From Azolla caroliniana (lineage: Eukaryota; Plantae; Polypodiophyta), in NCBI GenBank assembly GCA_043228905.1, contig JBHGNT010000012.1, forward strand, positions 10,974,001-11,038,000: 64,000 nt of DNA, written 5' to 3'. The translations under genes were made by a program, and so were the position numbers. This document shows, one piece after another, positions 9,557 through 34,530 of this stretch. Positions within the stretch are counted from its first letter, which is position 1; each line of letters begins with the position of its first letter. The notes under the pieces are model-generated. The model saw only the letters and a program-made list of their open reading frames with translations. It was not told the origin of the DNA and made no database searches.

Positions 9557-9692
9557 TACAAACCGGAACCGGAACTAGAAACCGGCCGGTATGCAAACCG
9601 GAAACTGGCTGGTAAGAAAAACCGGAACCGGAACCGACTGGCAAGCAAAACTGGAACCGGAACCGGCAAGCAAATTGGAACCGGAACCGGCC
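9557..9692 (+). repeat. AACCGG-based tandem repeats in Gypsy LTR (longer array at 22020-22365)
   Basis: Direct reading. Confidence 0.85.
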
Positions 9693-10069
9693 GGCGAGGG
9701 ATTCGGCGATCAGGCGGAACTGGCTACTGGACGAGGTTGGACGCGGACGGACGGAAGATTGGATCATGCAACAAACTAAAGTAAAGTGAAGAGAACTAAA
9801 GTAAAGGCCATGTGGACGCAAGCAACTAAAGTTGGAGTGCATGCAAAAAGTAAAGGTCATGTGGACGGTCACATGCAACTAAACGAAAAAGCCATGCCAC
9901 TAAAAATAGATGCAACTAAAAGAAAAAGCTAAGCAACTAAAAGTAGAGGCCATGCAACAAAAAGTGGACATGTAGATGATCAAGGGAGAACTCCATATAA
10001 AATTCCATTTTTTTTCCTACACTCAGGCTCTCTCCATATATTATATTGTTTTTCTTTTCCTTCGGGGTT

Positions 10070-10300
10070 TCCCTATCTTATCGAAGCCATATTTCTAAAG
10101 TAAACCCTAATTATCTTATCAAAGCCATTTCTCTAAAGTAAACCCTAATTATCTTATCAAAGCCATATTTCTAAAGTAAACCCTAATTATCTTATCGAAG
10201 CCATATCTCTAAAGTAAACCCTAATTATCTTATCGAAGCCATATCTCTCAAGTAAACCCTAATTTCCTTATGGAAGCCATATCTTACTCATAACCCTAAA
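10070..10300 (+). repeat. ~38-bp tandem repeat (CTAAAGTAAACCCTAATTATCTTATCGAAGCCATAT..), about 5-6 copies, within Gypsy LTR
   Basis: Direct reading; each unit contains AAACCCTAA. Confidence 0.9.
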
Positions 10301-10613
10301 TTTCCATACGGAAGCTATTCAACTCATAAAACCATAATCTCTTATCAATGCCAAAAGCCCTAATTTTCTATAGAATTCATATCTTAATTTCCTCTAATCT
10401 ATTACTCTACCCATCTCCATTAGCAAACTTTTTGTAATCCCAATCTTGGGATTAATTGTAATCTTTCTTTCTACTTATTAATGAAATTTGTTAATCTTTC
10501 TCATTTCAGTTAATTCTTAGTATATAAATACACGAATTTGATATCCTCTAGTCAAAGGCCCCGGGGTCTCACCTCAACGTTCACGTATCCTCGTCGTATT
10601 TTCGTGACATCTT

Positions 10614-10630
10614 TGGTGAACCCGACGTGA
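10614..10630 (+). promoter_or_regulatory. Primer-binding site complementary to 3' end of tRNA-Trp
   Basis: TGGTGAACCCGACGTGA is the reverse complement of TCACGTCGGGTTCA-CCA (plant cytosolic tRNA-Trp 3' end, from memory), 4 nt after LTR end ...GACA. Confidence 0.85.
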
Positions 10631-12724
10631 AGCGAGGCAGTAGGAGGATATCAAGTACGAAGATGGCTTCGACAAGTGGAACTCAAGGAGAAGAATTGAC
10701 GAAAGGCATGGTGTCCGTCATCGAATTCATGCTGAAAGAGAGATCGGGAGGCTTTAGTCAACAAAGCTGTTGACCGAATTGTGGAGACAATTGGAAGATT
10801 TGGTGGCAAGAACATCACAAATTTCCTTGCTACCTACCGGAACGAGATGCAACAAAGAGATGTCCATGATCTAAAACAAACTTCAATCTTTAAGCGTGTG
10901 GTAGAACCCGGGATCCGTGAGCGCGTGATGGACATCCAAAATGAGCATGCAACTTGGGCGGAGTTCGAAAGGGCTCTTCTCACTGAATACATGCTTGAAG
11001 ATGCATCACGGATGACTCGGCATACGTTAATGAATTGGATCGAGAAGAAAGGGAAGAATCTGTGTGCATCAGGAGTTTATGCCGAATTCGACCAGAAGTA
11101 CAACCGACTTCCGAGTGTCGAGCAACGAGTTCTCGACGGAGATAGAGTCTTACTATTCCTAAAGGCAGTGGATGCGAAAGATCGGCGAGAATTGAGCAGT
11201 TTCTTGGAGGAAAAAATGCAACCAAATGGCTTGGTAGCGGACTAGGCAGCGGTGAAGAAGGCTTGCAGCCGTTTTGATAAGCGGCGACAATGGCAAGAGG
11301 AAGCTGAGGTCCAGAATCCACAATTGTGGAAGAAGGCACCTACGACGATTGAGCCTAGTAAGCCGATCAACAATTTCGACAAGAAAGCAATGGAGGAGTC
11401 TATAATCGAAGAGCTCTCCAAGAAGTTTGAAGTGGTATCGCTAGCCAACTTAGGTTGACGCAGGCCCAAGGGAAAAGAAGCGTATAGATGTGTGTGGTGC
11501 GATAGCTTCGAACACTCATGGAGAGAATGTGCTGACTTGCAAGATGCGATCAGCAAGAATGTCGTCTATTTGGACGACAACATGATAAACTCGAGCGAGA
11601 CCCGGAAGCCACTAGGAGTGAACTTCAAAAGAGGTGGGCTGAAAAAGATTGTAGAAGAAGAAGATGCAAGGCATGTGGAGGCTATGCACTATGCCGCTTC
11701 GGCTGGGATACGAGTTGGAAAAGAGAATCTTAAAATGATCAAGCCAGGAGCTGGGTTTTGGCCAACGGTCTTCGAGTGTGAAGAAAAAGGCAAAATCAAT
11801 TCGGAGGATCTAAAACTTGCTGACTGAAACATGCGACGAGCTACCGGATGGTTAGATCCAATCGACGAAAACACAAGCTTTGCAGAGGTTAGATCCAACC
11901 TATCCCAAGAAAAGAGATTGGGGAAACAAACATGAAGCCCGGTGGATCGAGCCAACCTGCTCGGATGGAAGTCGAAGAATCAACAAAGAAAGGAAAAGAA
12001 CGAGCGGCACCAACTTACAAGCTAAGGTCGGACATAGAATAAACAACTAACTTGCGGAAGGTCCTTGAGGAGAAGGTTTTAGATAGTCATGTCTACCTTA
12101 GCTGGAGAGAGCTACTTGGGATCGCGAAGAAGGAGTTCCATGATACTATCATGGACCTTATTAAAAGGAAGCGGCAACAATCTGATGAAGAGGAGGTGAA
12201 AACAAGTGCCATAACCATGGCAAGATCGGAAGAGGAGGAAGAAGAAGAAGTGGTGGTGTATAGCCATTACTCGCGGCCTCATTGGGCAAGAGCGACAACG
12301 GAGACGCCGGTGAAGATCGGGGAGAAGAAAGAGACCGTGGTCTCTTTAATTGACCATGGCTCAGAGATCAACCTCATGTCGATCGAGTTCTACAAGAAAG
12401 GAAGATGGCCGATTAATACAAACCACGGATGGAAGATTCGAGTGGCGACGAAGGCTACGGAGGACTTGTACGGAGCTTGCCCCAACGTTAAAGTCACGAT
12501 CGGGGATGTGGAGATTGATCAACACTTCTTCGTGCAAGACTCAGCTTCACATCCCGTCATCCTAGGACAACCATATATAAGATCGTCCCGGATGGAGACC
12601 AAGGTGTTCGATAATGGAGCAGGCTTCGCTCCGTCAAGAGTCTTGATAGTAAAAGATCTGTTCAATTACTGACGGTGCGAGGTAATCATGAAAGGAACCG
12701 AGATAGCCTTGGAGGCGAATCCTC

Positions 12725-12787
12725 GGATTTTTAAAGCAGACTATTGAAGCATGGGGCACAAATAGTCTGAGCAATCATAAGTCCCCA
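12725..12787 (+). other. Candidate -1 ribosomal frameshift signal (G GAT TTT + stop + pseudoknot)
   Basis: Gag-Pro ends TCG GAT TTT TAA; the -1 frame is the pol frame; stem CAGACTATT/AATAGTCTG; loop TGGGG pairs with CCCCA. Confidence 0.75.
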
Positions 12788-13448
12788 CAAGGAAGCAAAG
12801 TGTGTGGATTGCAAGGAAAAGCAACATGCGTCACACCTAGCGGCGCATGCAAACTAAGACTACTCAACAAGAAGGAAAAGTGTCAGATACAAGACTTCGA
12901 GGAGGTGCTAAAAGAAGAAAGCATAATCGAAGAAGAATAATTCGTGTCATATATTCTGGAGGAAGCCTCATTTAATGACACCATCGGCGAAATCGAGGAA
13001 GTCGTGGACTTGAGCTATCCTCACCATCAACATGTGATTTCGGTTAACTCCGTCAACATGTATACTATCATCGATGAATATCATCGAGGCATCTTGATAG
13101 AGGAAGCCGAAGTCAACACAAAATATAAAACCGTGGATAGGAAGATCAAGCCAGTTGCGGTTCCGCTACCGGAAGATAGCTGGCAAAAGATGAAGGAAGT
13201 TGCAAAAGATCCAAGCTTAAGGAACCCAAATACAATTGGTCACGTCTTCACTGAAGAGACGAAGGGAAAGCTACGAGTTGGAAGGGAGGATTTCCTCCTC
13301 CCTGAAGAGGAGCGGATGTTTCGTGGAATGCTTGAAAGACATGGGAAGGCTTTCGCGTTTTACCCACAAGAAATCGAGTGTGCTAATCCAAGGACGGTAG
13401 AACCGATGGTGATCTTCACGGTGCCGCATGTGCCTTGGAATTTGAAAC

Positions 13449-16400
13449 TGTAAAGAATCAAGAGATGGATTCTTGTGAAGCGGAATAGGTGTGAACTGTG
13501 TGTGTGTGTGAGAGAGAGAGAGAGTGAGAGAGACAAGGAATACGCAAGGTAAAAGTATATTGACAAAGGAGATAGACTCAACATTATACAAGGTGGGAGG
13601 AGGGTGCTTTATGTAGTCACCCTCTCTCTTCATTAACTACAAGGCTCAGGAGCATGGGGAATGTGAAACCTCATAAGTTATGTGTCATAGAATATGATTC
13701 TATGACTCATACTAAATGCTAGAATACAAAGTGGTGACATAATGGTGACTCTTGACCGTTGAGGTGTCTCTTCACTCTCAAGGTGAGTTCACACACTAGA
13801 CCAAGTTGAGCTTGATTCTCAACACGCCCCCTCAAGCTCAAGTCGGGTCGGTTTTAGACGGTATCCGAAATCCGCTTCAATTCATGTTCGGGAGTCTGCG
13901 TCGACTCGCGTCGACTCGCTTTATGTGGAGTTGCGGAATCCGTGCTCCAGCTTGCGTTGTGCATAGTTACGAATTCTGTGCTTCGGTTTGCGTCTTTCTT
14001 CGCGGCTTTGCGCGGTAGATCGACTCTTTGCTGCTACGGTGTGTGGTTGCGGAATCTACGCATTATTGCGTAGTGTCTTCAGTACTCCCTCTCAAGCTTG
14101 GCAGATCAGGGATCGTCAATCCGAGATCGGTCATGAATTGCCATAGCTTGTCGACTCCTAAGGCTTTAGTGAAGATGTCGGCCGTTTGAAGATTGGTGCT
14201 TATGTGTTGTAGGTCGACATCGCCAGCCAGAACGCGCTCTCGAATGAAGTGATAGTGCACTTCGATGTGCTTTGTCCTCGTGTGGAACACCGGGTTCTGA
14301 GCCAGATAGATACTGCTCATGTTTTCGCAGTAAATGGAAGTCGGATCCTTGATGGGTACGCCCAGATCCTTCAAAATCCTCTTGAGCCATATGGCTTCAC
14401 ACGCAGCTACGGCTGCGCTCCTGTATTTTGCCTCTCTACTCGAAAGAGAGACGGTGGGCTGCTTCTTGCTACTCCAAGATATTGCTCCGCTGCCAAGGGA
14501 GAAAACAAATCCGGAGGTTGATCTTCTATCGGCTTCGTAGCCGGCCCAATCGGCGTCTGTGTACCCCTCGAATCGTATTGGCATCGCGGTCTTGTAGAGG
14601 ATGTCGCAATCCATTGTGCCGCTCACGTACCGTAGAACTCGCTTAGCGCAATCCAAGTGAGTATCATGCGGTGTTTGCATGAATTGGCTAAGGAGACCGA
14701 CCGGATAACTCAGATCGGGTCGAGTGATCGTGAGGTAGATGAGACTCCCGATGAGTTGCCGATACTGAGTCGGCTCACACGCTTTGGTGCCGGAGTTCGC
14801 ATCCAGTTTGAGATTACGATCGAGCGGGGTTGCCATGGATTTGCACTCAGCCATCCCGAACTTGTATAACAAGTTGAGGATGTAGTGCCGTTGAGAGATC
14901 ATGATTCCGGCCGGAGTCCGAATTACCTCGATGCCAAGGAAGTAGTGGAGCTCCTTCATGTTCGTCATCTCGAACTTGTCGGAAAGGAGGGATTTGAACT
15001 TATTGATTTCGACGAGATGCTCACCTCCAATGACTAGGTCATCCACATATAAAATGATGACGATCGGACTTGCGGAATCGCTTCGTATGTAGAGGGAGTT
15101 GTCCGATTTTGACATACGGAACCCGATTTGATGAAGATATTGCGTTATCTTCGAATGCCAAGCACGTGGTGTTTGCTTGAGGCCATAGAGTGGCTTCTTG
15201 AGTCGGCATACAACTTTCGGATGGGTGCTCGAGTTGAAGCCGGGTGGTTGTAGCATGTACACCTCCTCTTCTAATTCGCCTTGTAGAAAGGCGTTCTTGA
15301 CGTCCATTTGATGGAGGTGCCACCCTTTCGCCGCGGCAATCGCAATTACGGTCCGCACCGGGGCAAAGGTTTCTTCGTAGTCGACGCCATGTGTCTGAGT
15401 GTATCCTTTCGCTACGAGTCGAGCTTTGTAGCGGTTGACGGAACCATCGGAGTTATACTTCACCTTGTAGATCCATCTGCATCCGATCGCCTTTTTGTGT
15501 GGTGAGGTGGGAACGAGATCCCACGTCTCGTTCTTCCGTAGTGCCTGCATCTCCTCGTTCATTGCTTTGATCCATCGCAGGTCCTTCACGGCTTCCGAAA
15601 AGGTTTCCGGCTCTCGTACTGTCGCCACCTTCATCATAAAGGCGTAATGGTACGCCATGTAATCGTTGTACCCGAATTGACTTACGGGGTTCTTTTCACG
15701 AGTGGATCGGCGGAGCTTTTCATTTGCAGAGATGAGGGCTTTCTTTGCTCCGATTGGTACCTCGAAACTGCCGAACTCACTGTCGAGTGAGTGAGTTGAC
15801 TCATCATCGGTGAAGCGATCGTCTTCGTATTCCGCCATTTTCGCCTTGCCTTTGTCCATCTTCAGGCTAGGCCGTGATGTGCTTTGATCGCTCAAAGGCT
15901 CTTGTGGTCCGCTCAGTCGGGTCGTGATCGGACTTTCTTCGAACATGCGCGTAAGGTGATCTTCATCCTCTATCTCTTGTTTGGTGGATTTCGGGTCGAG
16001 CGGGGTCGGAGTCGAAGTTGTCTCTGGTGCATACCAGGATGTAGACTCGTCAAAGACGACGTCTCGACTTACTTGAGATTGTCGAGTTGAGGGGTTGTAG
16101 CACTTGTACCCCTTTTTCTCCAGTGAGTATCCTACGAGGATACATTTCTCCGACTTCGGGTCGAGCTTTTGACACTTCTCGTCGGGGATGTGCACGTACG
16201 CAATGGAGCCGAATATCCGAACATGTGATAGGTTCGGCTTCTTTCCGAAGAATCTTTCGTGCGGAGTGACCTCGTGCACGCCGGATGTTGTGCACCGGTT
16301 CATTAGGTAGACGGCCGTATTTGCCGCTTCGGCCCTATATAACTTGGGCATATGCTTCTCGTTCATCATGGCCCGCGCTACTTCGAGGATGTGCCGATTT

Positions 16401-18905
16401 TTGTGCTCGGCTACTCCGTTTTGTTGCGGAGTGTGTCGGCAAGTGAATTCTCGTCGAATTCCTTCCTTTCGGAGATACGCCGTGAAATCATCCGAGAAGT
16501 ACTCCTTGCCGCCATCCGATCGAAGGCATCATACATGTCGGCTCGTGGCTTTCTCGACTTCATTCTGGAACTTTTGGAAGTGTCCGAACACTTCGCTCTT
16601 TTGCCGCATCGGATAGATCCAAGTGTGCCTAGAAAAGTCGTCGATGAAGAGCACGTAATATCGGCATCCGCCGAATGTCGCCGTTTGGGCCGGACCCCAT
16701 ACATCGGAATGAATTACGTCGAGTACGCCTTTGCTCACATTCCGCTCCTTCGGGAATGGGTGTCGGTGTTGCTTGCCGAATTGGCACGCTTCGCATACAC
16801 CTTCAATTTCCTTCTCTTTGAATGTCGGGAGTCCGATAACGACTCCTTTCGATCTCATTGCTTTGAGTTTGTTGAGATTGATGTGACCGATTCGCTTATG
16901 CAATAGCTGTATGTCGGAGTCGGCTTTCGTGCTTTTCGCGAACATGGCAGATTTCATCTCGTGCGAATCGAGAATGAACATCCAGCCCTCTCTTCTTCTG
17001 CATGCGATGATTCAGCCTTCTTTTTCGATGAGTGACCCTTCTTGATCGAATCGTACTTGCATCCCTTGCTCAACCATTTGGCCGACCAAGACCAAATTCT
17101 TCGTGATAGTGGGAACATGCAAGACATTTTTAATGTATGTTTGCTTACCTCTTTCGCCGAACGGGACATTGCCGATGTGCCGAATCGGGTGCGTAGTGTC
17201 ATCTCCGGTTTCGACATAACCGGGTCGCTCCGGCTCTCGAAGTTCAAGAAACCATTCTTTATGTGATGTCATATGGTTTGAGGCTCCAGAGTCTACAAAC
17301 CATACGTCCTCCGGATTGAGGGCACTAGTTAAGGTAGAGGCCGACATAGAGTTTGCTCTATGTTTCATCATGAACATTCCGCCACGGTCGGAGTTGTATG
17401 CGTACATTCCGCCACGATCCTCGTAGTCGGAGTTGTGCCCGTACATTCCGCTATACTCTTCGTAGTCGGAATTGTGCTCGTAATTTGTGAGTTGTCGACT
17501 TGTGGAAGCCGATTCACGCATCTTCTTTCGGCACTCTTCTTCGTGGTGGTCGAGCTTTCCGCAATATCCGCATTCGGTTGCGTTTTGACGGCTCGGGCCG
17601 GAGTGAAAGCTCCCCCTTCTTGCGAAGGTTCCTCGTTGGCCTCCGTTTTGCGGCCGAAATTGAGAGTTGTTGTCGTAGGTCGGACCTCGTCCGCCTTGTC
17701 CTTGGCCGAATCGGCCTCCCGCTCGTTTGCGTCCTCTTCCTCCATTAGAGTGCGTGTAGAGCATGTGGCCTTCCGACTCATTGCTCCTTGTACGCACGTG
17801 GTTTTCTTCGACCAATAGCATTGATTGGAGCTCGAAGAAGGAGGGAGATTTCTCCCGTGCTAGAACGGCGGTTCGCATCGCACCGAACCGTGGTGCGAGG
17901 CCGCCAAGGCATATTTGCACCATCTCATCATCATCTATACTTACGCTTATTGAACCGAGCGAGTCGCAAAGCTCCTTGATCTTCAAGGTGTATGTCGTGA
18001 TGGACATGTCCCTTTGTTGAATGTTGTTCAACTCTTGGCGGAGTTGAAGCTTCCTCGCGGTCGTGTTGGCGGCTAAAATCTTTCGTAGGTTTTCCCACGC
18101 TTCCTTCGGCGTCTTGGCTTCTCGAATGTAACCGAGCATGTGGTCGTGAACACATGTCGCCAAACAATACATCACGCGGCTTGTGGCTTGCTCCCATGTT
18201 GCGTATCCGGGAGCCGCTTCGGTGGGTCGGTCTTCATGCGATCCTTTGATGTAGCTCCAATAGCCTTGTCCGACAAGGTATTGGTGCATCTTGTACTCCC
18301 AAGATGCGAAGTTGTTTCGATCCAACTTCTCGGTAGGGAGAGCACTCCCCATTTGAGTATTCATTATGTCGATTCTTCTTCTTCTTCTTCTTCTCTCTTC
18401 GAGTGCGAGCTATGTAGCGAAGCTACAATAGTGATGAGCCGGTTCTTGGTCGTCGGCGTGGAGCACAACACACGATCACGATGAGGCGAATGGGCTAGAT
18501 TGAGCTACCAAATCGCTCTGATACCATGTAAAGAATCAAGAGATGGATTCTTGTGAAGCGGAATAGGTGTGAACTGTGTGTGAGAGAGAGAGAGAGTGAG
18601 AGAGTGAGAGAGACAAGGAATACGCAAGGTAAAAGTATATTGACAAAGGAGATAGACTCAACATTATACAAGGTGGGAGGAGGGTGCTTTATGTAGTCAC
18701 CCTCTCTCTTCATTAACTACAAGGCTCATGGAGCATGGGGAATGTGAAACCTCATAAGTTATGTGTCATAGAATATGATTCTATGACTCATACTAAATCC
18801 TAGAATACAAAGTGGTGACATAATGGTGACTCTTGACCGTTGAGGTGTCTCTTCACTCTCAAGGTGAGTTCACACACTAGACCAAGTTGAGCTTGATTCT
18901 CAACA
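13449..18905 (-). mobile_element. Full-length young Ty1/Copia element nested in Gypsy pol; LTRs 13449-13824 and 18527-18905; TSD GAAAC
   Basis: Near-identical TG..CA LTRs; PBS-Met 18515-18526; PPT 13825-13836; gag-pro 17012-18364 (CGYCGKLDH knuckle, WFVDSGAS); IN-RT-RH 14063-16981 with frameshifts. Confidence 0.97.
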
Positions 18906-21900
18906 GAAACCGATACCGATTCCGAGAGCACACCTACTGAAGCTGATCAAGCTCTTAAAGGAGAAGGTGAGGATGGGAATTCTAGAACCGTCGAACGCTC
19001 CTTATTCTAATAGGTGGTTCACGGTGCCAAAGAAGAATGGATCTTCGTGATTCATTCAAGATCTTCAACCCGTCACCAAGGTGACAATTCGGAATGTTGG
19101 AATCGGTCCGACTGTGGATGAATTTGTTGAGGCGTTTGCGGGGCGGTCCATATACTCCATCGACGATATCTACTCTGGCTACGATCAATTCCAGTTGGCG
19201 ATTGACAATCGTGACATTACAACCATGAGAACTCCAATCGCGTTGGTGCGGATGTGTAACTTACCTCAAGGCGCAACGAACTCGGTGGCTCAAATGGTGA
19301 ATGCCATGAACAAGGTCTTGAAGGATTGCATCCCGGATATCACGATGCCATTCTTAGATGATATTCCGATAAAAGGATGTTCAGATGAAGAGAAGGATGA
19401 ATCAAAAGATAAGGATGAATGTAGAAAGTTCGTTGTGGATCATATGAAAGATTGCAAGAAGGTGCTCCAAAGGCTCGAAGATGCGAATTTGACATTTTCG
19501 GGAGAAAAATCTGCATTCGGGCAACCGGAGATCCTGGTGGTAGGTCACTTGTGTGGAGCATATGGTCGGAAGCCTTCGCCATCCAAGGTGAATGCAATCC
19601 AAGACATGAAAGAAGAATGTGTAACCCAAACGGAGGTTCGAAGGTTCCTTGGAGCATGCACGTTTTATCATATTTGGATTCCACACTACGCCCACATTGC
19701 TGAGCCATTATATGGTCTACTAAAGAAGAAGCGGATGTTCGAATGGACAAGCGAGCATACAATCGCCATCCGAAGGCTGAAGAAATTATTGATGGAGGCA
19801 CCTGCATTACGGAAAGCGGACTATTCATACGGCAAGCCGATTTTCATGACTGTGGATACTAGTCCAATCGGAATTGGATGTGTTATCAACCAAGAAGATG
19901 AAGATTGCAACCGATATGCAATTCGGTTTGGCGCAAAAGTGTTAAGTGACAGGCAAAGAAGGTATGCCCAAGTGAAGAGGGAGCTATGGGGAATCATCTC
20001 GGCAATCAAATATCGTGATTACCTTATTGGAGTAGAAGTCATACTTGAGACAGATTGCCTACCAATTTTGGGTATGATATCTAGTTGTAATACACCGGAT
20101 ATTGCCATGTTGCGTTGGATTGCATATATCAAATCACTCAACTCGGAGATCCATCATGTAGCTGGGAAGCGTAATGTCGTTGCAGACATGCTATCACGAG
20201 CGAGATACGACAGAGAAGAAGATCGACATTCTGATGAAGATGATGTTGGCTTGGATTTCTTTGCAAGTTCCTACGCTCGGGTGTTGACTACTTTCATAGA
20301 AGAGGACTACGAAGGCGAATTCGTGGAGATCGGGAAATACTTGAGTTCTCTCCAAAAAGATGAATCATGGTCGACGGAAGACTTCCATCGAATTCGGAAG
20401 AAGGCATACAAGTATTTCCTTAAGGATGGAGCTCTTTGGAGGCATGCAAAAAAGAAGAATGGGACTCCGATGAGAGTTGTCTGCAAGCTAGAAGACCAAC
20501 AAAAACTAATGTCTGAATTTCATGATAGTGTTTTTGCATGCCATCGAGGAATATGGGCTACGTTTGCCTAGCTTAAGGAGAAATATTGGTGGCCGAACAT
20601 CTACAAAGATGTAGCAGCTTATGTGGAAACATGTAAGGAATGTCAGATGTTTTCGAATATTCGCCATCGAGATGGACTTCATCCGACTTACCCATTGGCT
20701 ATGCATTACAAGTGGATGGTGGACATCGTGATGATGCCAATGGGGCGATGGCAGATGAAGTATCTTGTGCTCGCGAGAGAGGATCTTACCAATCAAGTTG
20801 AAGGGCGAGCATTAAGAACTAAGGAGACATCATCGGTATGCCGATTCCTTCTTGAAGATGTTATTTGCAAATATGGATGCGTCGGCAAGATAGTGGTTGA
20901 TTGAGGCGAGTTGGACGCCAATGAAGCTAGAGAATTCTTCTCGAGGATGGGAATAAAATTATCTCTTACCATGGCGTATAATCTGGAAGCAAATGGGAAG
21001 GTGGAACGTGGACATGGACCGATTGTGAAGGCTCTAGTAAAAGCTTGCCACGGGAAAATAGGAGAATGGTCGCGTCTATTGCCATTTGCACTATGGGCTG
21101 ACAGGACTACTCATAGCACAGTGACGGGATACATGCCGACAGAGCTCATATTCAGACAAAAGCCAACAATGCCTGTAGAACAAAGTATTATGTCATGGTT
21201 TCCATTGCCATGGCAAGATGAGATAAGTAGAGAAGATCTTCTAGCATTGAGGATTCAACAATTAGAGCGAATTTTGGAATATATAGAGGAGGCTAAAGCG
21301 CGGCTAAAGAATGCAAGGCTAAAGAACAAGAACAACTTCGATAAACGACATCGACATCGGCCGAGGAAAATCGTTGAAGGAGATTGGGTGCTAGTCTATG
21401 ACAGTAGCCTAGATAACCAACATAGTACGACTCAAAAATTCTCACAATGATGGTTTGGGCCATATGTGGTGAAGAAAGTGGAAGATAATGCAACATATCA
21501 TTTAGTAGAACTAGATGGTACACCACTTGCATTGCCAATTGCCGGTAAAAGAATCAAGATCATCAAGAGAAGAGATAGAATAGAAATTGGATTCGAAGCT
21601 TTTGACAATTCAGTCTTAAGCATCGATGAAAAAGTATAGTAAACAAAATTGAATCCTCACCAAAATTGGCACATACCGGTGGATGTGCAGGTTTGGTGGG
21701 GGTGAATGTCGTGTGAATCTTCACACACTATGTAAAAAATAATGAAATAATTATTATAGATTAGATTAGTAGCTTACTATAGAAAGACGGATATACTCAA
21801 GAGCTTCAAAATGTATTTTACTATATACAAAATGGAGAAATACATATCAAGTTATATGAAAATAAAGTTTAAGAAGATAGGGAAATTAGAACTATCCCAC

Positions 21901-22992
21901 ATAGATAGGAAAGTTATGGCCCTGGCTATATAAGCACCTTGAGCTCCCTCATTTTTCATTTGTGCTAAGAGCACTTTGGCCACTTTGTCTTGATGGATGA
22001 TGGTGGCCAAATTCCCTAAAACCGGAAACCAGCCGGTAAGCAAATTCGGAAACCGGTTCGGTAAGCAAATTTAGAAACCGGCCGGTATGCAAATCGGAAA
22101 CAGGCCGGTAAGCAAAACCAGAACCGGAATCGGCAAGCAAACCGGAACTAGAAACCGGCCAGTATGCAAACCGGAAACCGACCGGTAAGCAAAACCAGAA
22201 CCAGAATCGACAAGCAAACTAGAACCGGAACTGGCCGGCAAGCAAAACTGGAACCAGCCGGTAAGCAAAACCGGAACCGGAACCGGTATGCAAATCGGAA
22301 ACCGGCCGGTAAGCAAAACCAAAAACGGAACCGGCCGGCAAGCAAAATCGGAACCGGAACCGGCTAGCGAGGGATTCGGCGATCGGGCGGAACCGGCTAC
22401 CGGACGAGGTTGGACGTGGACGGATGGAAGATTGGATCATGCAACAAACTAAAGTAAAGTAAATAGACCTAAAGTAAAGGCCATGTGGACGCAAGCAACT
22501 AAAGTTGGAGTGCATGCAAAAAGTAAAGGTCATGTGGACGGTCACATGCAACTAAACGAAAAAGCCATGCCACTAAAAATAGATGCAACTAAAAGAAAAA
22601 GCTAAGCAACTAAAAGTAGAGGCCATGCAACAAAAAGTGGACATGCAAATGAATGTCGACAAAAAGGGAATGTCGACATCCATATTACTACAAGTATTTT
22701 AGGATTTGAAATGTTCAAATGTCTTATATGCATTTTAGGATGTAGAACTATATTGTACATCAAAAAATTGTGTAAACATAGATGTTTTTTACAATATTAT
22801 AGATATTTTTTAAAAAGGTAAATAATTTTCAAATTCTAGAAGTATTTAACGTACTATACGTTACGTATTTTACATATTTTATAAGTATTTAACATATTAA
22901 GAAAATGTATTTAACGTATTTTTAAATTGGGAGGTACTATACGGGTATTAATACGTTAACTACGTATGGTATCCGTACCGTACCTAACAACC

Positions 22993-25930
22993 TTGGTCCA
23001 CAGTCTTGTACTTGGTGTCTACTCAGGCAACCCGATGCGCCCTGGTTTTTCTTTCGAAGTCCGCAATGACTTCATACATGTCGATCGAGTTGACCAGCAT
23101 GACTCGGTCTTCGCTTAGGCCCTCTTCGACTACCTTCCCGATTTCTCCAAGGGTGTCATCGAATAAGACCACCTCCACGGCTTCCCTAATCCCTTCATCA
23201 TGACTCAAGGCTCCGCACGCCTTTAAGCATATCTCGACCCATTTTCTTTCTCGGCCACTAATGCTGGCTATGGTACATCCTCCATTGTCGGAGAATAAAA
23301 CTTTCTTTCGTATTTTACAGGTGTGGAGAATTTTCCGGCTATCCAGACTATCGCGGCCCCACGTCTTGATAGCCCTTTCTAAAAATCCGCCTTGTCGTTA
23401 TTTCCGAGGGTGTCTCTGTTCCGCTTGTGATTCTTCCGAACGGTCAAAAATTGCACGGAATGACAACCATCCTGACTTTTTACCCTTGCATAGGCTGAAC
23501 CATTGTCCAACACTTTCGTCTCCATTCTAACCGCCGTGATGTATGGTTCGCCGAGGATGACCGGGTAGGAGGATGTCTCTTGCACGAAAAAGTGTTGGTT
23601 TATATCGACGTCTCTGACGCTCACCTTGACGTTCGGGCAAGCCCCGTGTAGTTCTTCCGTGGCTCTTGTAGCCGTGCGTATCTTCCACCTGTGTTTGGTG
23701 TTGATCGGCCAATTCCCCTTCCTGTAGAAGTCCATGGACATCAGGTTAATTTCTGACCCGTGGTCGATCAATGCTACCATCGGTTCCTTCACGTCCCCAA
23801 TACAAATGGGGGTTTCTGTAGTCACTCTTGCCTAGTGCGGCCTGGCGTAGTGTCTCTTCACAAGCTCGTCTTCCGCAGCCATCTCGTCAAGGAGTGCCGC
23901 CCTTACCTCAACCGGTTTCTCGGGCTCCGGTTCCGTCGCGAGACGCTTTCTCTTCATGAGGTCCACGATGCTATCATGGAATTCCCTTCTCGTTATGCCA
24001 AGCACTTCCCTAAGCGTGAGTTCTATGCTATTGTCGACAACTCGCTCCTCTAGAACCCTTTGTAGGTTCATTGTTTTCTCTATTTCCGAGCTTAAACGGA
24101 AGCTCGGAATCCTGCCCTTCTCCTTCTCCTGGGACTTGGTCGGAGTGGCATCGTGCCTTTTCGGCGCGCTTCAGGTGTCATACCTCCCTGAAGGGCCTGC
24201 TCCCCCAGTTTTCCCTGCTTGCCTTTCGTCGATTAGGGCCTCGTAGTTCCTGCACGCGGCCTCCACAAAGCCAGTGCTCTCCTCAACTGGGTCACTCCAG
24301 CCCGTAACCTCGCGCACACGCTCCCCCGCGCGCTCCACATGTCCCTTATGCAGCCTTCCTCCGGAGAAGGTCTCGAGAATAACCGGCTAGAACCCAGGGT
24401 TTGAATAAGGTTTGGTCGTCCTTTCGCCTACGCGGATGCCGGCCGAAGCTGAGTAGTGGACAACTTTGACGTGTCGTGCCGCAACCTCTTCCATTAGCCT
24501 CTTCATGCCTCCTCATCCGAAATTCGCATCCAACAATCTTCGTGTGTCGCTCGAATGTATCCTGCCATTAGAAAGATAAACTACATTACTTCTGAGCGCT
24601 TCGCCGAGGTCAGCGCAATCTCTCCGGACATGTCCGGTGGCGTCGCACCATATGCACCTCTGATTGGCCGGCGGTCGCCGGTTGCGCGGTTGACCCTCGT
24701 CCCTTCGTCGGGCCTGGGCGATCTGGAAATCGCGCACCATCCTTGTTAGTTCTTCGAGTCCTGTGCCGCCTGCAAGTCCCGTGACTACGTTTGCCGGGGG
24801 TGGGCCTAGCTCGAGCCACATCCTCGTTTCTTCCATTCGGCTCGGCATCGGCTCGGCTCTAGTTTTGACAGCCGGTCCGGTCTGCGAGAACCCCCTTCCT
24901 TTCCAATCTTGGCGTTCTGACCCTTGTCGGGGTTGTTGACCCAATCCATAAAGTTCATTCTCGATAGTCGGAGCAAGTCGTCGTAGTTGTACCTTTCGAG
25001 AACTTCCTCCGTGAATTCCGCCCAATCGCGGCAGCCCGCTTATATTTCGGCCATCTTTGTATGGATGTGTGGTGTCACGACCCGGGGAAACCCTGTCAGC
25101 CGCCTATCCTCGGGTATATTCCTCATCTGCATCTCAGATTTGTAGGCCTCTAAGTAACTCGTGGTGTCTTTTCCACTGAACTGGCCTATCTTGTCGACTA
25201 TTGCTTATATGGCCTTGTTGAGGGCACTCGCGCCCTCACGAGCGCTAACCAGGCGGTCTATCGCCACCGCCATTGCTTCTGCAAGTTCACTCCCTGTCAT
25301 TTTCAGATTCCTTTGCTGCCCTTTTCACGTCGGGTTCACCAAATATGTCGAGGAAATCCTCGCGGATGCGTAGAAGTTTGGCAGGACCACGGGGGTCTTC
25401 TACCAAGGAATCAAGAAGCGAGGAGGAAGGGTCTGTGGTTTATGCAAGCCCTGAGACCGCAGTTTAAATAGAGAAGGTTAGTGAAACGAGAGAGAGTGTA
25501 AGAGGATCGTGTGTAGACACATGTGCAGACAGAGATGCTAAGAACAACTTGCATCAGGTAGATAAGTTTCTATTAATCAATATATGCGCATAGCGCTATG
25601 GGTGATTACAACCAAATCAGTGTCAGTGATCGAGCGTAGGCTCTGCAATAGTCAGATACAAAGTTGAGTAGGCACACAGAAGGTCGATCCCCTAGCCAGG
25701 AGCACTTGGGTGTCTGACGCGAGCAGGGGAAGCGCCTTCCGATAGTCTGTCACCCGACTCTCTGTTTTCTTTTCTCTCCCTCTAAAAATATGACATCCCT
25801 CAAATAGTCAAAGTTTGTCCCTTTTATAGCACAAGGAGCGACCGTTACAAAGCATTCATGACTTGTTGCTTTCCCTTCCTACATTCTCCCCTTGATTCGC
25901 TCTCCTCGTAACTCTCCCTACTTACGTGAT
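22993..25930 (-). mobile_element. Second, diverged tRNA-Trp-primed Gypsy copy (gag-pro and start of pol; 3'-truncated), LTR from 25346 (far end uncertain)
   Basis: PBS 25325-25341; CIWCDATGHVRRDC knuckle; LIDHGSEIN protease; ...VDTKYKTVD homologous to 13110 region. Confidence 0.88.
23323..23388 (-). other. Candidate -1 frameshift signal in second Gypsy copy
   Basis: GCG GAT TTT TAG; stem GGGCTATC/GATAGTCT; loop GTGGGG pairs with CTCCAC. Confidence 0.75.
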
Positions 25931-27272: not shown

Positions 27273-28191
27273 ACCTTCATCCCAAAATGGGGTTGACTCA
27301 TTAATCATTTGCCCTACTAATTTCAGACACCCTACTCATTAATCAAACACCATACTCATTAATTAGACGCCCTACTCGCATGAAGACACATGTGGAGTAG
27401 TCAGTCACCCCACTCACTAATTTCATACGCCCTACTCATTAATCAAACCCTCTTTTCACAAGAAACCATATGGTCAAGTTGCACACTAGCCGCTCCTCAT
27501 TTGGGGCGCTATCACAAAATGTGTACTCTAAGAGCACATATGGGGATAGATTTACAATTTGGGGTTGATCTTTGATTATATCTAACACGCCCCCTCAATA
27601 GTCAACCCATTGAGTTCACTTGGAATTGGGCCAACTCCTAGTCGTCGAAGGTGTTGTTGTAGTTGTTCTGCTCCAAGCGCCTTTGTGAAGATATCCGCAA
27701 CATTTTCTGATGTCGGACAATACTCAAGTTCCATCGTCTAATCGTTTATTAGCTCCCGCACATAGTGATACTGAATCTCTAAGTGTTTAGTACGTGAATG
27801 AAATACGGGGTTCTTGGCAATGGCCATGCACCTCTGATTGTCACACCTCAATATCGTTGCCATGCTTATTGGAACCGTTGTCGTGAAGATTTTCGGCAAT
27901 GGTGTGAAAATCACATAAGACGTACGAAATCAAGTGTCAATCATATAAAACAATAATAGTGAATATACTAATTCTAAGTAAGTTTAATATCTTAGTGCTA
28001 AAAATGAAGATCTTGAAGAAATGCACTTTATTACAGGAGAAACAGACAACTAGATGTCAAGATATGAGGGTATAAAGTGTGTGAAAGGAAAAGAGAAAAA
28101 TTGTGAGATATCCCACATAGGCACGACAAATACGGCTCTCATCATATATAAGGTAGAGCAAAAGTTATTATCTTTGTGTCTATGTGTGGAG

Positions 28192-31100
28192 TGTTGGGAT
28201 TACGGTCCCTTCGGATGGGATGGTCGGATGTCGGAGATGAATGCCGACGAGCCCGGTTTTCGGTTTCGGAACCGGATGATGAAGACCCCGGCTTCGGAGC
28301 CGGATGACGAATGTACCCGGAGAGAGATCCGGATGCAGGGACATATCCGTGAATATGTTTGCTAAGGGCCCCTGAGGCTATAGTTGTAAATAGCCCCAAA
28401 GTCATATATGTATAAATATGACTTAGGGCAAACAGTTTTGTTGTTGCTCATTATTTTTCTGTTTTTCCACTTAAGAGGAGTGAAGAGAGAGAGCAGCCAT
28501 GGAGAGATAGAGCGTGAGAGAGGAAGAGGTCGACGCCTCTGTGTATTTCCGCCGCCTGTGGCGAGGACAGCGAGCTCAAGGTCGTCGCCTTGCAGCTCGT
28601 CATTGTATACTTCTCTGTGTATAGTGTTGGTTTGGAGTCTTGTACTCCCGTGGTTTTTCCCGTACAGGGTTTTCCACGTTAATCCCTATGTATTCGTGTT
28701 TCTCTCTCTGTGGTTCCTATTTTCTGCTGCATCGATTCGCGCTTACTTGGTTGTGGCCGAGTGAAGAAGGTTAATCGAAGAGTTGATTCCTTACAAACTG
28801 GTATCAGAGCGAGCTGCTGCAGAAAATGGAAGGCGGCGGCAGCGGGCAGCCGGGGATGATGGTGCTGAATGCGCAGAATTACGCCGACTGGAAGATCAAG
28901 ATGGAGGATCTTCTGATTGTTCGGGACCTGTACGAACCGATTGACAGGTCGGAAATACCGAAGGGAGTACTTGAGTCGGAGTGGAAGCTCCTGAACCGGA
29001 AAGCCGTAGCGACGATCCGACAATATGTCGATGTAAGCGTCCTACAACATGTGGCGAACGACACCAACGCATATGAGATGTGGAAGAAGCTGTCGGGCCT
29101 CTACGAGAGGAAGAATGCGTTGAACTGGACCTCCCTGATGAGGAAGATAGTGAATCTCAAGTACCGGGACGGCGAGAGTATGGTGGAACACGTAAGCACG
29201 TTCATGGGATTCGTGAATCAGCTTGCGGCGATCAAGTTCCCGCTGGAGGATGCAATGCAAGCCATCATTCTGATGTGTACATTGCCGGAAAGCTGGGAGA
29301 ACTTGGTGGTGACTCTCAGCACCTCCTGCACCGAAGATAACTTGTCCCTACAAACGGTAAAGACAAGTATTTTGAACGAAGAAGCGCGTCGGAGAGATAA
29401 AGAACCGGCCTCCGACTCGAAGGCGCTGCTTACCGAATCGGAACGGGGAAGACAATGGAACCGGAGTCCGCAAAGAGGAAGGCCCACATGCTTCCACTGT
29501 GGGAAGCCGGGGCACTTCCGAAAGAATTGTCGGCATTACCGAAAAGACAACGGAGCCGACGACACCGATTCGAAGAAGTCACCGGAGAGAAACGGCGCAT
29601 ACCGGGGAGCCACGGACCGGAGAGGTTCGGATCGGCGAGGGCAGGACCGGAAAGGAACGACGGCACTCGCGGCAAGTGAGGAAGAAATCATGCTCATCAC
29701 CGAAGAAGGTGAACTGAACATTGCCGGCGATGAGACTACCTGGGTGGTCGATTCCGGAGCGTCGTTCCACCTGACCCCGGAGAGAAGATACTTCTCATCC
29801 TACACAGTCGGTGAGCATGGCTGTGTTCGGATGGGAAATGAAGGTACGTGCCGGATTGCCGGCGTAGGAGACGTGTGGTTGACAACCCCGACCGGATGCA
29901 AAATGCTGTTGAAGGATGTCTGACACGTTCCGGAGGTTTGGTTGAACCTGATTTCGGCCGGGAGGCTAGACGATGAAGGCTACACAGGTAGCATCCGGAA
30001 CGGCGTAATGAAGTTCAGCAAGGGGAGCCTGATAGTGGCTCGGGCCCGGAAAGTCAACACACTGTACCTGATGAATGCCCGGTTATGTCCGGAAGAGCTG
30101 AATGTGGCAGTCGACACTGCCGGTGAGCTGTGGCACAAAAGACTGTGCCACATGAGTGAGAAGGGGATGAAGAGGCTTGCAGAAGACAACCTCATTCCAG
30201 TGAAGCATGTGCACCTGGAGAAGTGCACCGATTGCCTGGCCGGTAAGCAGAACCGAACCTCCTTCCATTCAAGGCCACCGACGAGACGTAGCGCACCATT
30301 GGAGTTGGTGCACACTGATGTGTGTCAGGTAGAAACGAAGTCACATGGCGGAGCCCAGTACTTCGTAACATTCATTGATGATCACAACCGGAAGCTGTGG
30401 TCGGCACCATTGAAGACAAAGGACCAAGTGTTGTGCGTCTTCAAAGAACTCCACGCGAGAGTGGAAAGGGAATCCGGCAAGAAGCTGAAAGCGATACGAG
30501 CGGATAACGGAGGGGAATACCGGGGGCAGTTCGCGGAGTACTGTCGCTCGAAGGGAATCCGGCTCGAGTTTACTGTGCCGAAGACGCCGGAACTGAACGG
30601 GCTGGCCGAGAGGATGAACCGGACCATAATGGAGAGGGTCCGGAGTATGCTGGCGCATGCGAAATTACCCAAGGGGTTTTGGGCTGAGGCAATGTCGACG
30701 GCGACATACGTGATAAACAGATCACCCTCAGTACCTTTGGACGGAGACATGCCGCAGAAAGTGTGGACCGGTAAGGAAGTGTCCTACCGGCATCTGAAGG
30801 TGTTCGGGTGTCTCGCATACGTGCATGTGGCAAAGGACCGGAGAGGAAAGCTAGATCCAAAGACCCGGCCATGCATATTCCTCGGTTACGGCGACGATGA
30901 GTTCGGCTACCGAGTATGGGACCCGGTCGACAAGAAGATATTCAGGAGTCGAGACATCATCTTCATGGAGGACAAGACACTCGCCGACTGGGAGTCGGAG
31001 AAGAAGGTGAAGAGCTCCAAGTCGACCGGTGAGGATCAACTCTACGAGGAGCAGTCCCGACCGGCAAGGGACCGGTTAGCACTCGAGGATCCGGCCGAAG

Positions 31101-33480
31101 GCGGTGAAGAAACAGAACCGGCCGAAGAAGATGAAAATGATACCGGAACCGGCCCCGATCCCGAAATGGATTCGGATGAAGAAAAATCGGAAGAACCGGT
31201 TACCGAAGCTCCGGAACGGAGATATCCTCTAAGAGAGAGAAGGGCCCCCCGGATATTTCCGGAACCAGAGCACGTGCTGCTAACCGACGAGGGGGAGCCG
31301 GAGAGCTTTGAAGAAGCAAAGCATGACACCCAGAGCCGCAGGTGGTTGAGTGCCATGCAGGACGAGATGGATTCCCTGCATGAGAACCACACATATGAAC
31401 TTGTGGAGTTGCCGAAAGGAAAGCGGGCACTTCGAAACAAGTGGGTGTTCAAGCTGAAACCGGGAGATGCCGGAAACCCCCCGAGATACAAAGCCAGGAT
31501 CGTGGTGAAGGGGTTTCAGCAGAAGAAGGGCGTCGACTTCGACGAGATATTTGCCCCGGTAGTGAAGATGACCTCCATCCGAACGGTGCTGAGCATAGCG
31601 GCAAGCATGGACCTCGAGGTAGAACAGATGGACGTGAAGACGACATTCCTTCACGGTGACCTCGAAGAAGAGATCTACATGCAGCAACCGGAAGGATTCG
31701 AGAAGAAAGGGAAGGAGCACCTGGTATGCCGGTTGAAGAAGAGCCTTTACGGACTGAAGCAGGCTCCCCGGCAATGGTACCGGAAGTTCGACTCCTTCAT
31801 GACCGACGAAGGGTACCTCAAAACGCAGTCCGACCACTGCGTGTTTGTGAAGAAGTTCGAAGGAGGAGACTTTCTAATACTCCTCCTGTACGTGGACGAC
31901 ATGTTGATCGTCGGACGGGACCAGGTCAAGATACGGATGCTGAAGAAGGCTCTTCACCGAACCTTCTCAATGAAGGACTTGGGTCCGGCGAGGCAAATAC
32001 TAGGGATGCACATCATCCGGGACCGAAAGAAGAAGCAGTTGTGGCTGTCACAGGAGAAGTACGTGACAAAGGTGCTTCAACGGTTCAACATGTCGGAAGC
32101 AAGACCAGTCGGGTCGACTCTCCCGGCAAATTGCAAGCTGTCCAACAAGCAAAGTCCCAAGACAAAGGCTGAAAAGGAGGATATGATGAAAGTGCCGTAT
32201 GCCTCAGCCGTCGGGAGCTTGATGTACGCGATGGTGTGTACCTGACCGGACATCGGATATGCAGTCGGAGTGGTGAGCCGGTACATGAGCAATCCCGGCA
32301 AAGAGCATTGGAACGCGGCCAAGTGGATACTCCGATACCTGAAGGGCACGGCAAACGTGTGCCTCCGATTCGGCTCCGGTAAGCCCGAACTCGACGGCTT
32401 CACCGATTCGGATATGTCGGCTGATGCAGATACCAGCCGGTCCACATCAGGGTATGTGATGACGTATGCAGGGGGAGCCGTTTCGTGGCAGTCGAGGCTG
32501 CAGAAGACGGTTGCGTTGTCAACCACGGAGGCGGAGTACATGGCAGCTGTTGAAGCCGGCAAGGAAATAATATGGATGAAGGACTTCATTAGAGAGCTCG
32601 GGATCCGGCAGGAGGAGTACCGACTCTACTGCGATAGTCAGAGCGCCATCCACCTTGCAAAGAACGCGGCCTACCATTCCCGGACGAAACACATCCAGCG
32701 TAGATACCACTGGATCCGGGAAAGGATAGAAGACAAGGAGTTCGTGCTGACGAAGATCCACACGGACGAGAACGGGTCGGATATGCTGACCAAGGTGCTC
32801 ACACCCGACAAGCTGGAAGCATGCCGGAAGAGGATCGGATTGGAAAGACATCCCATGCCGAAGTGAAGGGGGAGTTTGTTGGGATTACGGTCCCTTCGGA
32901 TGGGATGGTCGGATGTCGGAGATGAATGCCGACGAGCCCGGTTTTCGGTTTCGGAACCGGATGATGAAGACCCCGGCTTCGGAGCCGGATGACGAATGTA
33001 CCCGGAGAGAGATCCGGATGCAGGGACATATCCGTGAATATGTTTGCTAAGGGCCCCTGAGGCTATAGTTGTAAATAGCCCCAAAGTCATATATGTATAA
33101 ATATGACTTAGGGCAAACAGTTTTGTTGTTGCTCATTATTTTTCTGTTTTTCCACTTAAGAGGAGTGAAGAGAGAGAGCAGCCATGGAGAGATAGAGCGT
33201 GAGAGAGGAAGAGGTCGACGCCTCTGTGTATTTCCGCCGCCTGTGGCGAGGACAGCGAGCTCAAGGTCGTCGCCTTGCAGCTCGTCATTGTATACTTCTC
33301 TGTGTATAGTGTTGGTTTGGAGTCTTGTACTCCCGTGGTTTTTCCCGTACAGGGTTTTCCACGTTAATCCCTATGTATTCGTGTTTCTCTCTCTGTGGTT
33401 CCTATTTTCTGCTGCATCGATTCGCGCTTACTTGGTTGTGGCCGAGTGAAGAAGGTTAATCGAAGAGTTGATTCCTTACA
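28192..33480 (+). mobile_element. Full-length Tnt1/Tork-like Copia; apparently identical 604-bp LTRs (28192-28795, 32877-33480); single-frame gag-pol 28826-32866 with two TGA stops
   Basis: PBS-Met 28799-28810; PPT GAAGGGGGAG; CFHCGKPGH, WVVDSGAS, YVDD and TKHIQRRYH motifs. Confidence 0.97.
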
Positions 33481-33726
33481 AACTGCATAGAGAGTTCAAG
33501 GTAACTTGAACTAAGAGTGGAGGTGGCCTAACTACTCATAAAGGTTTTGGCCAACCAAAACCAGACCGAAGATGGAGCCGGTGATCCGGCAGCCAGCAAA
33601 GCGACGGTGGCACACCGGCAACCGGTGATCCACTGGAACCGACATCCGACGGAGCCGGCGAGCCGGTGGCATCCAGCGCCGGCGACTAGATAAATAAATA
33701 TATAAATATATATACATATACAAGGA

Positions 33727-33797
33727 GGGCAAGTAAGGATTTGAACCTTGTACCTCCAAGTTAGGAGTCAATTGGCTTACCACTAAGCCAAGATACT
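33727..33797 (-). ncRNA. tRNA-like sequence (A and B boxes) inside solo LTR; not a canonical tRNA gene
   Basis: TGGCTTAGTGG (A box), GGTTCAAATCC (B box), D stem GCTT/AAGC, loop CTCCTAA; acceptor stem does not pair. Confidence 0.55.
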
Positions 33798-34245
33798 TAT
33801 TTAAAATTATGTTTCTATCATCGCAATTTTACATGTAAATTCTTATGCATGAGAGCTAAAATGAGTGACATGGTTATCATGCACCACATGTAATACACGA
33901 GCACCAAATGGCAAACATGCATCATATGCATGGGGGCCTCTATAAAAGGATGGATGAAAATGTATTATGGATCCATGTATGAACTAAGAAATTAATGAGA
34001 AGAAAATTCATTGATGATATATCTTGTTTCTTAAATCAAGAGTAAAAATCTTAATCTCAATATCTCTCTTGGCCATATCAATCTTTCTCAATCTAAGTCA
34101 AGCGTTTAATCTTAATCTCTTTCTCTCTTTCTCAATCTATCCTAAATACTTTCTCACTAAGCTTGGTGCGAACTTCGATACTTCCGGTCCAGAACCCCGG
34201 CGGTTCCACCTCGCGATCCGCGCCTAGTGACGGATCTTCACGACA

Positions 34246-34530
34246 CCGTCACATCCATAAGGATTCTTCTTAGCCAAACTACCTCGCATGCCACTATGCA
34301 TGTTGCTTTGTATTCTGCCTCCGTTGAAGATAGTGCCACTATTGGATGTTTTTTACTACTCCATGTAACAACTCCAGATCGTTGCCGTCCTTATTGGAAC
34401 CGTCACATCCATAAGGATTCTTCTTAGCCAAACTACCTCACATGCTGCTATGCATGTTGCTTGGTATTCTGCCTCCATTGAATATAGTGCCACTATTGGT
34501 TGTTTTTCACTACTCCATGAAACAACTCCA
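34246..34530 (-). repeat. ~154-bp tandem duplication in Copia RNase H
   Basis: 34246 onward repeats at 34400 onward. Confidence 0.85.

Follow-up and report, generated by a model that had tools for sequence, protein, structure and literature searches.

A putative -1 frameshift signal between protease and reverse transcriptase in Phygy-type Gypsy elements of Azolla caroliniana and their relatives

We analysed a window of 64,000 nt from Azolla caroliniana (contig JBHGNT010000012.1, positions 10,974,001 to 11,038,000, forward strand) and found that Pol of a Gypsy lineage present there is probably made by a programmed -1 frameshift. The shift would take place on the heptamer G GAU UUU that ends Gag-protease, and a predicted H-type pseudoknot 6 nt downstream would stimulate it. 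A conserved -1 frameshift between protease and reverse transcriptase (RT) had been proposed in the initial annotation of this DNA, and at the level of sequence it is strongly supported by layout, phase, heptamer, stop, spacing and a covarying stem 1. The lineage possesses an overlapping ORF in the -1 phase, a conserved in-phase heptamer and a stem 6 nt downstream that is kept as structure. In our best reading this is a genuine recoding signal, shared across the lineage and mechanistically of a known kind. A heptamer combined with a pseudoknot is textbook knowledge; it is the position that we have not found described in plant retrotransposons.

Two copies of the cassette are present in the window (Table 1), and both belong to dead elements. 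Copy 1 spans about 9560-22655 (+) and contains stops, frameshifts and a Copia element nested inside RT, while copy 2 (-), also with stops and frameshifts, is truncated about 130 codons past the junction. The heptamer, stop, 6-nt spacer, stem arms, 15-nt loop and the complementary loop and downstream runs all lie where the initial annotation had placed them, and translation of the window agrees with it that the -1 frame after the heptamer is the Pol frame in both copies. Its compensatory base pair needs correction: the A-U at the outer end of the copy 1 stem does not represent covariation within the family, since relatives have G-C there. With G at 12738 and C at 12768 in four other runs, this A-U pair is derived, and both of its changes are of the CpG-decay type.

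Table 1. Features of the Phygy-type elements in the window (positions are those of the 64,000-nt stretch).
Feature	Position	Strand	Remark
Copy 1, 5' LTR remnant	about 9560-10609	+	
Copy 1, PBS	10614..10630	+	motif common to L001, L002, L003, L005, L008 and L013
Copy 1, Gag-protease ORF, decayed, ends GAT TTT TAA	10663..12734	+	intact counterpart is 727 aa in L003
Copy 1, Pol (linker-RT-RH-IN), -1 frame	12707..21640	+	nested Copia inside at about 13449-18905
Copy 1, slippery heptamer G GAU UUU (GGATTTT)	12725..12731	+	
Copy 1, Gag-protease stop TAA (12732-12734) and spacer (6 nt)	12732..12737	+	relatives: TAA, TAG and TGA
Copy 1, stem 1 and loop (31 nt), loop G-run 12752-12756	12738..12768	+	8-9 bp; other subfamilies have 11-12 bp
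Copy 1, stem 1 arms AGACTATT / AATAGTCT	12738-12745 / 12761-12768	+	loop 15 nt
Copy 1, C-run, predicted partner of loop G-run (stem 2, H-type pseudoknot)	12783..12787	+	TGGGG 12752-12756 / CCCCA
Copy 1, polypurine tract and 3' LTR	21695..22655	+	LTR from 21707, 3' end approximate
Copy 2, element	22993..25346	-	decayed Gag-protease, PBS at 25341, Pol stub ending near 22993
Copy 2, cassette	23323..23388	-	heptamer GGATTTT 23388-23382, then TAG
Copy 2, stem arms GGGCTATC / GATAGTCT	23375-23368 / 23352-23345	-	
Copy 2, loop G-run GTGGGG / predicted partner CTCCAC	23362-23357 / 23328-23323	-	
Solo LTR, same lineage (27879-34245)	27875..34249	+	CCGT/CCGT, 4-bp target duplication either side
Copia nested in solo LTR	28192-33485		young; its LTRs identical over 609 bp

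Chance occurrence of the cassette was rejected on two counts, both with a descriptor (a stem starting 4-8 nt past the heptamer, and a G/C-run in the loop pairing downstream) whose thresholds were chosen after seeing the cassette. First, its score for the stem plus second stem was matched by 0 of 300 dinucleotide shuffles in each of six cassettes. Second, only four of 516 slippery-like heptamers in the window passed it, two of them being the cassettes of copies 1 and 2, and the remaining eight of the ten GGATTTT sites scored 0.

The comparison set consisted of 20 metagenome loci and two further contigs, and 14 of these contain the junction (L006, L012, L015, L017, L018, L019, L020 and L022 were left out as lacking it). 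These relatives are assemblies of multi-copy families and not single insertions, and L002 and L004, duplicates of L001 and L003, were dropped from the cassette alignment and from the pairing and frame counts. L021 and L022 are plant-type retrotransposon contigs within two prokaryote assemblies, most likely contamination. The exact heptamer is present in 13 of the 14 junction-bearing loci, and the sole locus with a mutated one, L010, carries in-frame stops. L001, L003 and L005 each have just two ORFs of at least 200 aa, which overlap by 28 nt: ORF 1 is Gag-protease ending Asp-Phe-stop (G GAU UUU-stop), and ORF 2 is Pol (RT-RH-IN), with 1158-1179 codons in the -1 frame. The layout of L021 is identical. 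Over 120 codons past the site, the -1 frame contains no stop in 11 of 14 rows and a single one each in copy 1, copy 2 and L010, compared with 5-9 stops in the other frames. Upstream of the site the -1 frame is open for only 2-18 codons (14 rows); in the L008 group and copy 2 it opens merely 2-3 codons before, and GGATTTT is their only in-phase slippery-like heptamer.

A frameshift produced by decay was rejected, since intact relatives have the same phase at the same site. Stop readthrough was likewise rejected, since Pol and Gag-protease do not share a frame and any of TAA, TAG and TGA can serve as the stop. All ten pairwise comparisons of the five subfamilies gave identical heptamers (7/7) and loop G-runs (4/4), with protease identities of 54-92%, identities at 4-fold sites in protease of 18-51%, and a variable spacer and inner loop. 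The heptamer thus persists between subfamilies with largely saturated synonymous sites. Contigs of four further runs aligned to L003 had TAA, TAG or TGA as the stop, and variable spacers and loops; no variant was listed in the heptamer, the G-run, the C-run or stem 1 beyond its first base, where two of the runs showed 2-3% change, positions near stretch ends being under-called and none being listed upstream either. Neither these contigs nor those of four other runs, all of them DNA or probable DNA, contained a joint.

The relatives also include mosaics. L001 and L002 are alike in Gag-protease and at the junction and differ in RT-RH-IN (74% versus 94% to the window), while L003 and L005 differ in Gag and the LTR end and are near-identical in Pol past the linker. 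This suggests recombination between subfamilies near the start of RT, or chimeric assembly.

The alignment of 12 cassettes is gap-free over the first 44 nt, and in it 81.8% of the cells of the 11-bp stem 1 are paired (shuffles, 74.4 +/- 1.6, with 0 of 500 reaching this value). Slid registers are only 20-39% paired. Two-sided changes occur in seven of the 11 pairs, which was equalled in one of 500 shuffles; the rows are related, five of the seven pairs involve one locus, L021, two involve copy 2, and in one the change reflects decay of copy 1. Only some subfamilies form the three innermost pairs, which are broken in 8, 8 and 6 of the 12 rows. A third stem sequence lends independent support: three Adiantum gene models in three reading frames, combined in a test that merges different copies and is deduced from proteins, forced the same heptamer, a spacer of 6 nt and complementarity at 11 of 11 stem positions (slid registers, 2-5 forced and 6-8 excluded). 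Among the first combinations tried, two were inconsistent and one had one excluded pair (P0122, Ile for Val); the final test used a peptide one residue shorter and P0181 as substitute. For the P. patens type, the same test gave eight forced, three compatible and no excluded pairs.

The covariation that the initial annotation had attributed to the pseudoknot is seen in stem 1; stem 2 is conserved yet invariant and shows none, because its G-run and C-run do not change. In all five subfamilies, an invariant GGGG in the loop is accompanied by a complementary C-run about 13-23 nt past stem 1, and an H-type pseudoknot formed from the loop GGGG and the downstream CCCC is plausible as a model. Stem 2 has only 4-6 bp, and Ser-Pro or Phe-Pro is coded there; protein constraint could account for its conservation. 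The local C-run would be incidental if a real -1 frameshift were stimulated by the stem 1 hairpin alone, or by the G-rich loop with a distant partner. We consider this unlikely, since the complementary C-run is kept at differing distances in all five subfamilies and 10 of the 15 Pol N-termini examined have Phe-Pro 13 codons past the loop codon, in a linker that is otherwise poorly conserved. On the other side, stem 2 lacks any two-sided change, stem 1 folds well by itself (z -2.05 to -5.14 in six cassettes) and extends to 12 bp in L007 and L016, leaving a short loop, and the plant viruses with G_GAU_UUU use a stem-loop plus long-range pairing according to the relevant passages of two articles (PMC4737148, PMC5009743). 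The cassette has no match in Rfam, and no match was obtained in viral contigs.

For breadth at the protein level, we took the best 120 of 125 Gag-protease relatives, sorted by source into 61 contig gene calls and 59 eukaryotic gene models. Among the matches listed, 54 of the 61 contig-called proteins end in a slippery-compatible way, at the terminus (35 with DF, GF or NF) or five codons earlier (19 with DF or GF plus five residues). Three others end VFD, VFY or DYG, and four look truncated or shifted. In these listed matches the tail before the dipeptide varies in sequence and in length (22-42), and the residue before the dipeptide is codable with a final G in 52 of 52 scored cases, including ten with Met, which forces G. 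By comparison, no codon ending in G exists for 31% of tail residues, and the bias amounts to about p = 0.003 with 16 clusters at 70% identity. Distant representatives (~40% identity) often possess the same ending. Odd tails (Val-Phe plus five or plus one residues, Gly-Phe, Asn-Phe) were observed in P0189, P0216 and P0228 (Riccia), P0143 and P0149, and P0190, P0155 and P0209; they point to putative alternative slippery heptamers in some subfamilies.

The initial annotation had named intact copies in which one frame covers both protease and RT, or splicing joins them, as evidence against a frameshift. Its expectation held among contig-called Pol proteins, none of 84 of which carries protease, a full fusion falling within the searched lengths. 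It did not hold for P0386, a distant singleton contig call with protease, RT, RH and integrase zinc finger in one 1374-aa ORF, which stands on a long branch and could represent either its own lineage or a single copy that mutated, or for the eukaryotic gene models of the Pol search, 28 of 36 of which join protease to Pol, with introns predicted ab initio.

These models would fit a Pol translated from spliced RNA that lacks the stop, as has been shown for Ogre (PMC6317226). We regard such splicing as highly improbable: the junctions of the gene models are widely different, 10 of 14 rows lack any GT from -30 to +13 around the heptamer, and an acceptor is shared by no rows and absent from L021, even though the protease frame is abandoned just past DF in many P. 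patens models, at the Glu-Val codons where stem 1 begins, and a U-rich TAG is present at the stop in copy 2, L007, L016 and L010. It would also leave unexplained the heptamer itself, why the Pol frame is open through the junction, why the spacer is fixed at 6 nt and why Asp-Phe is terminal after a G. An Ogre-type junction, with a non-coding spacer, stops and conserved splice sites, was not found in the DNA of the 14 rows, where the frames overlap and neither GT nor AG is conserved. It is likewise highly improbable that Pol arises by reinitiation, from an internal start or a separate subgenomic RNA, or through slippage of transcription on the U-run, the stem serving packaging or reverse transcription, because the first Met of Pol varies from codon 8 to 111 with no conserved start (14 rows), the U-run is just 5 nt, and phase and spacing are exactly as in tandem-slippage signals, against which stand a Met often found inside the loop in one subfamily (biased by start calling) and the precedent of Tca2, by which a pseudoknot predicted at a junction need not recode (PMC7175516).

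The elements were confirmed as Gypsy elements, as annotated. The lineage is not a nameless one, however; by their features, the window elements and their relatives are assigned to Phygy of REXdb, a clade of non-chromovirus Ty3/gypsy elements. Both copies and six loci have a conserved 17-nt PBS after the LTR end, which we take to be of the tRNA-Trp type. The solo LTR at 27879-34245, whose ends match the LTR ends of L001, L003, L008 and L013, is flanked by a target duplication of NCGN type (CCGT/CCGT; a single insertion). The element length is about 7.9 kb, an estimate across different copies from an internal part of 5743-5802 bp and two LTRs of ~1070 bp. Pfam finds RT, RH and integrase domains only in the Pol of L003 and L001, with no chromodomain and no additional RNase H. 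Phygy in REXdb agrees in 4-bp NCGN duplication, length (7656-9968 bp, or 7.7-10.0 kb) and lack of an extra domain, and has a tRNA-Trp PBS in 81% (PMC6317226, Additional file 5). Its ORF organisation is entered there as "ND" and the clade is called species-specific (PMC6317226), whereas here the layout is resolved, which fills the entry, and relatives are found in Riccia and Adiantum. TatI (tRNA-Trp, 4-bp TSD, additional RNase H in 100% in REXdb) is disfavoured by the lack of an additional RNase H in Pol of L003 and L001, and Tcn1 by the same Pfam result of RT, RH and integrase domains only.

Among relatives with a species or genus name, predicted proteins from Physcomitrium patens, Riccia and Adiantum come closest, consistent with a non-seed land plant as host, and the P. 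patens protease is 60-65% identical to that of the window lineage. In a quick protease tree (88 rows, 145 columns), the window family is nested with P. patens, Adiantum and Riccia rows (SH-aLRT 93). No protease relatives were found in the PDB; among Atlas aspartyl-protease clusters the next nearest are from Basidiomycota, which is a lead only. We presume a possible link of the lineage to fungal Ylt1-like elements, and no post-protease shift is described in the literature passages on those elements. The protease active site is Asp-His-Gly throughout the lineage and not the usual Asp-Thr/Ser-Gly (window 23382-23831 (-), L003 2315-2791), and the L003 protease escapes the Pfam protease models.

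In the frameshift reading that we prefer, most ribosomes would stop after Asp-Phe and release Gag-protease, and protease would therefore be made in a 1:1 ratio to Gag. The structure would cause a minority of ribosomes to pause; there tRNA-Asp and tRNA-Phe would re-pair on GGA UUU (tandem -1 slippage), and these ribosomes would read on into a linker of ~130 residues and then RT-RH-IN; the predicted transframe junction in L003 is ...SDF-LKRT.... The consulted passages report that G_GAU_UUU works as a shift site in plant ribosomes and that a nearby stop helps (PMC4737148; PMC5009743), and list G_GA as an accepted variant in slippery heptamers (PMC5009743). The stop next to the heptamer possibly helps here too, as measured for PEMV in the excerpt concerned (PMC4737148).

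The known systems nearest to this arrangement differ from it in several respects. Alpharetroviruses have a gag-pro/pol layout with the shift after protease. The PMC5009743 passage on this is worded differently; its lines on beta- and deltaretroviral pro-pol (MMTV, HTLV) likewise describe a -1 shift after protease into RT. Compared with these retroviral shifts, Phygy-type elements have a single shift, a different heptamer, a place in a plant Gypsy element and unrelated sequence. The IBV pseudoknot has an 11-bp stem 1, as here. In animal and fungal Gypsy elements and in PEG10 the known shifts fall before protease, whereas the Phygy-type protease stays with Gag. Their gag/pol shifts likewise use a heptamer plus pseudoknot that sets the Pol level, as stated in part of one article (PMC5009743). 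Umbraviruses and dianthoviruses (PEMV RNA2, RCNMV), in the sections available on them, share G_GAU_UUU (PEMV), a stop at or near the site, a 5-6 nt spacer and plant ribosomes, but have a large bulged stem-loop with long-range pairing, in contrast to the predicted compact local pseudoknot of a retrotransposon.

Among plant LTR elements, the contrast drawn in the initial annotation was overstated. REXdb contains post-protease splits, which prevail in Ogre, with a spacer or intron, and in Retand, with a single stop, while the frames of Tcn1 and Selgy overlap before protease (PMC6317226). What stands is that an overlapping-frame junction after protease is listed for no lineage in Additional file 5 of REXdb (PMC6317226). 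Ogre and Retand, of the Tat clade, likewise have the polyprotein split between protease and RT; the Ogre spacer is an intron and Retand has an in-frame stop, both with aRH, whereas the Phygy type has a -1 overlap and no aRH. No description of the signal in Phygy or bryophyte elements was found in the literature within reach, which includes little from subscription journals, Repbase or preprint supplements.

The junction can serve as a lineage marker, and it also explains the differing introns predicted there. As a -1 signal it is compact and covaries naturally, and it comes from plant nuclear genomes, for which the consulted part of a frameshifting review has only poorly understood cases. Moreover, how non-chromovirus elements set the ratio of Gag-protease to RT becomes testable with a construct of <100 nt. 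More tentatively, and with somewhat less than even confidence, we propose that Phygy-type elements have kept the same pseudoknot-driven post-protease -1 shift across mosses, ferns and probably liverworts. If true, the geometry (heptamer, 6 nt, 31-nt stem-loop, G-run) would be fixed and the stem sequence would covary freely. Non-chromovirus Gypsy elements would then have three solutions for an old control point between protease and RT, the Ogre intron, the Retand stop and this signal, which would also be the cellular equivalent of G_GAU_UUU in umbraviruses and dianthoviruses.

The window also contains other features. The LTRs of copy 1 have AACCGG-rich repeats and a 38-bp tandem array (9586-10339 and 22082-22368). 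Unrelated Gypsy pieces lie at 45381-46181 and 52601-53410 (-), with a Ty3 capsid domain and an RT 28% identical to Phygy-type Pol. Part of a host gene, coding for PPR repeats and the beginning of a domain of PRORP (protein-only RNase P), is located at 5966-7348 (-), and a protein kinase exon at 61255-61905 (+). Inverted repeat arms of 68 nt, with 185 nt between them, occupy 59796-60116 and possibly represent a MITE.
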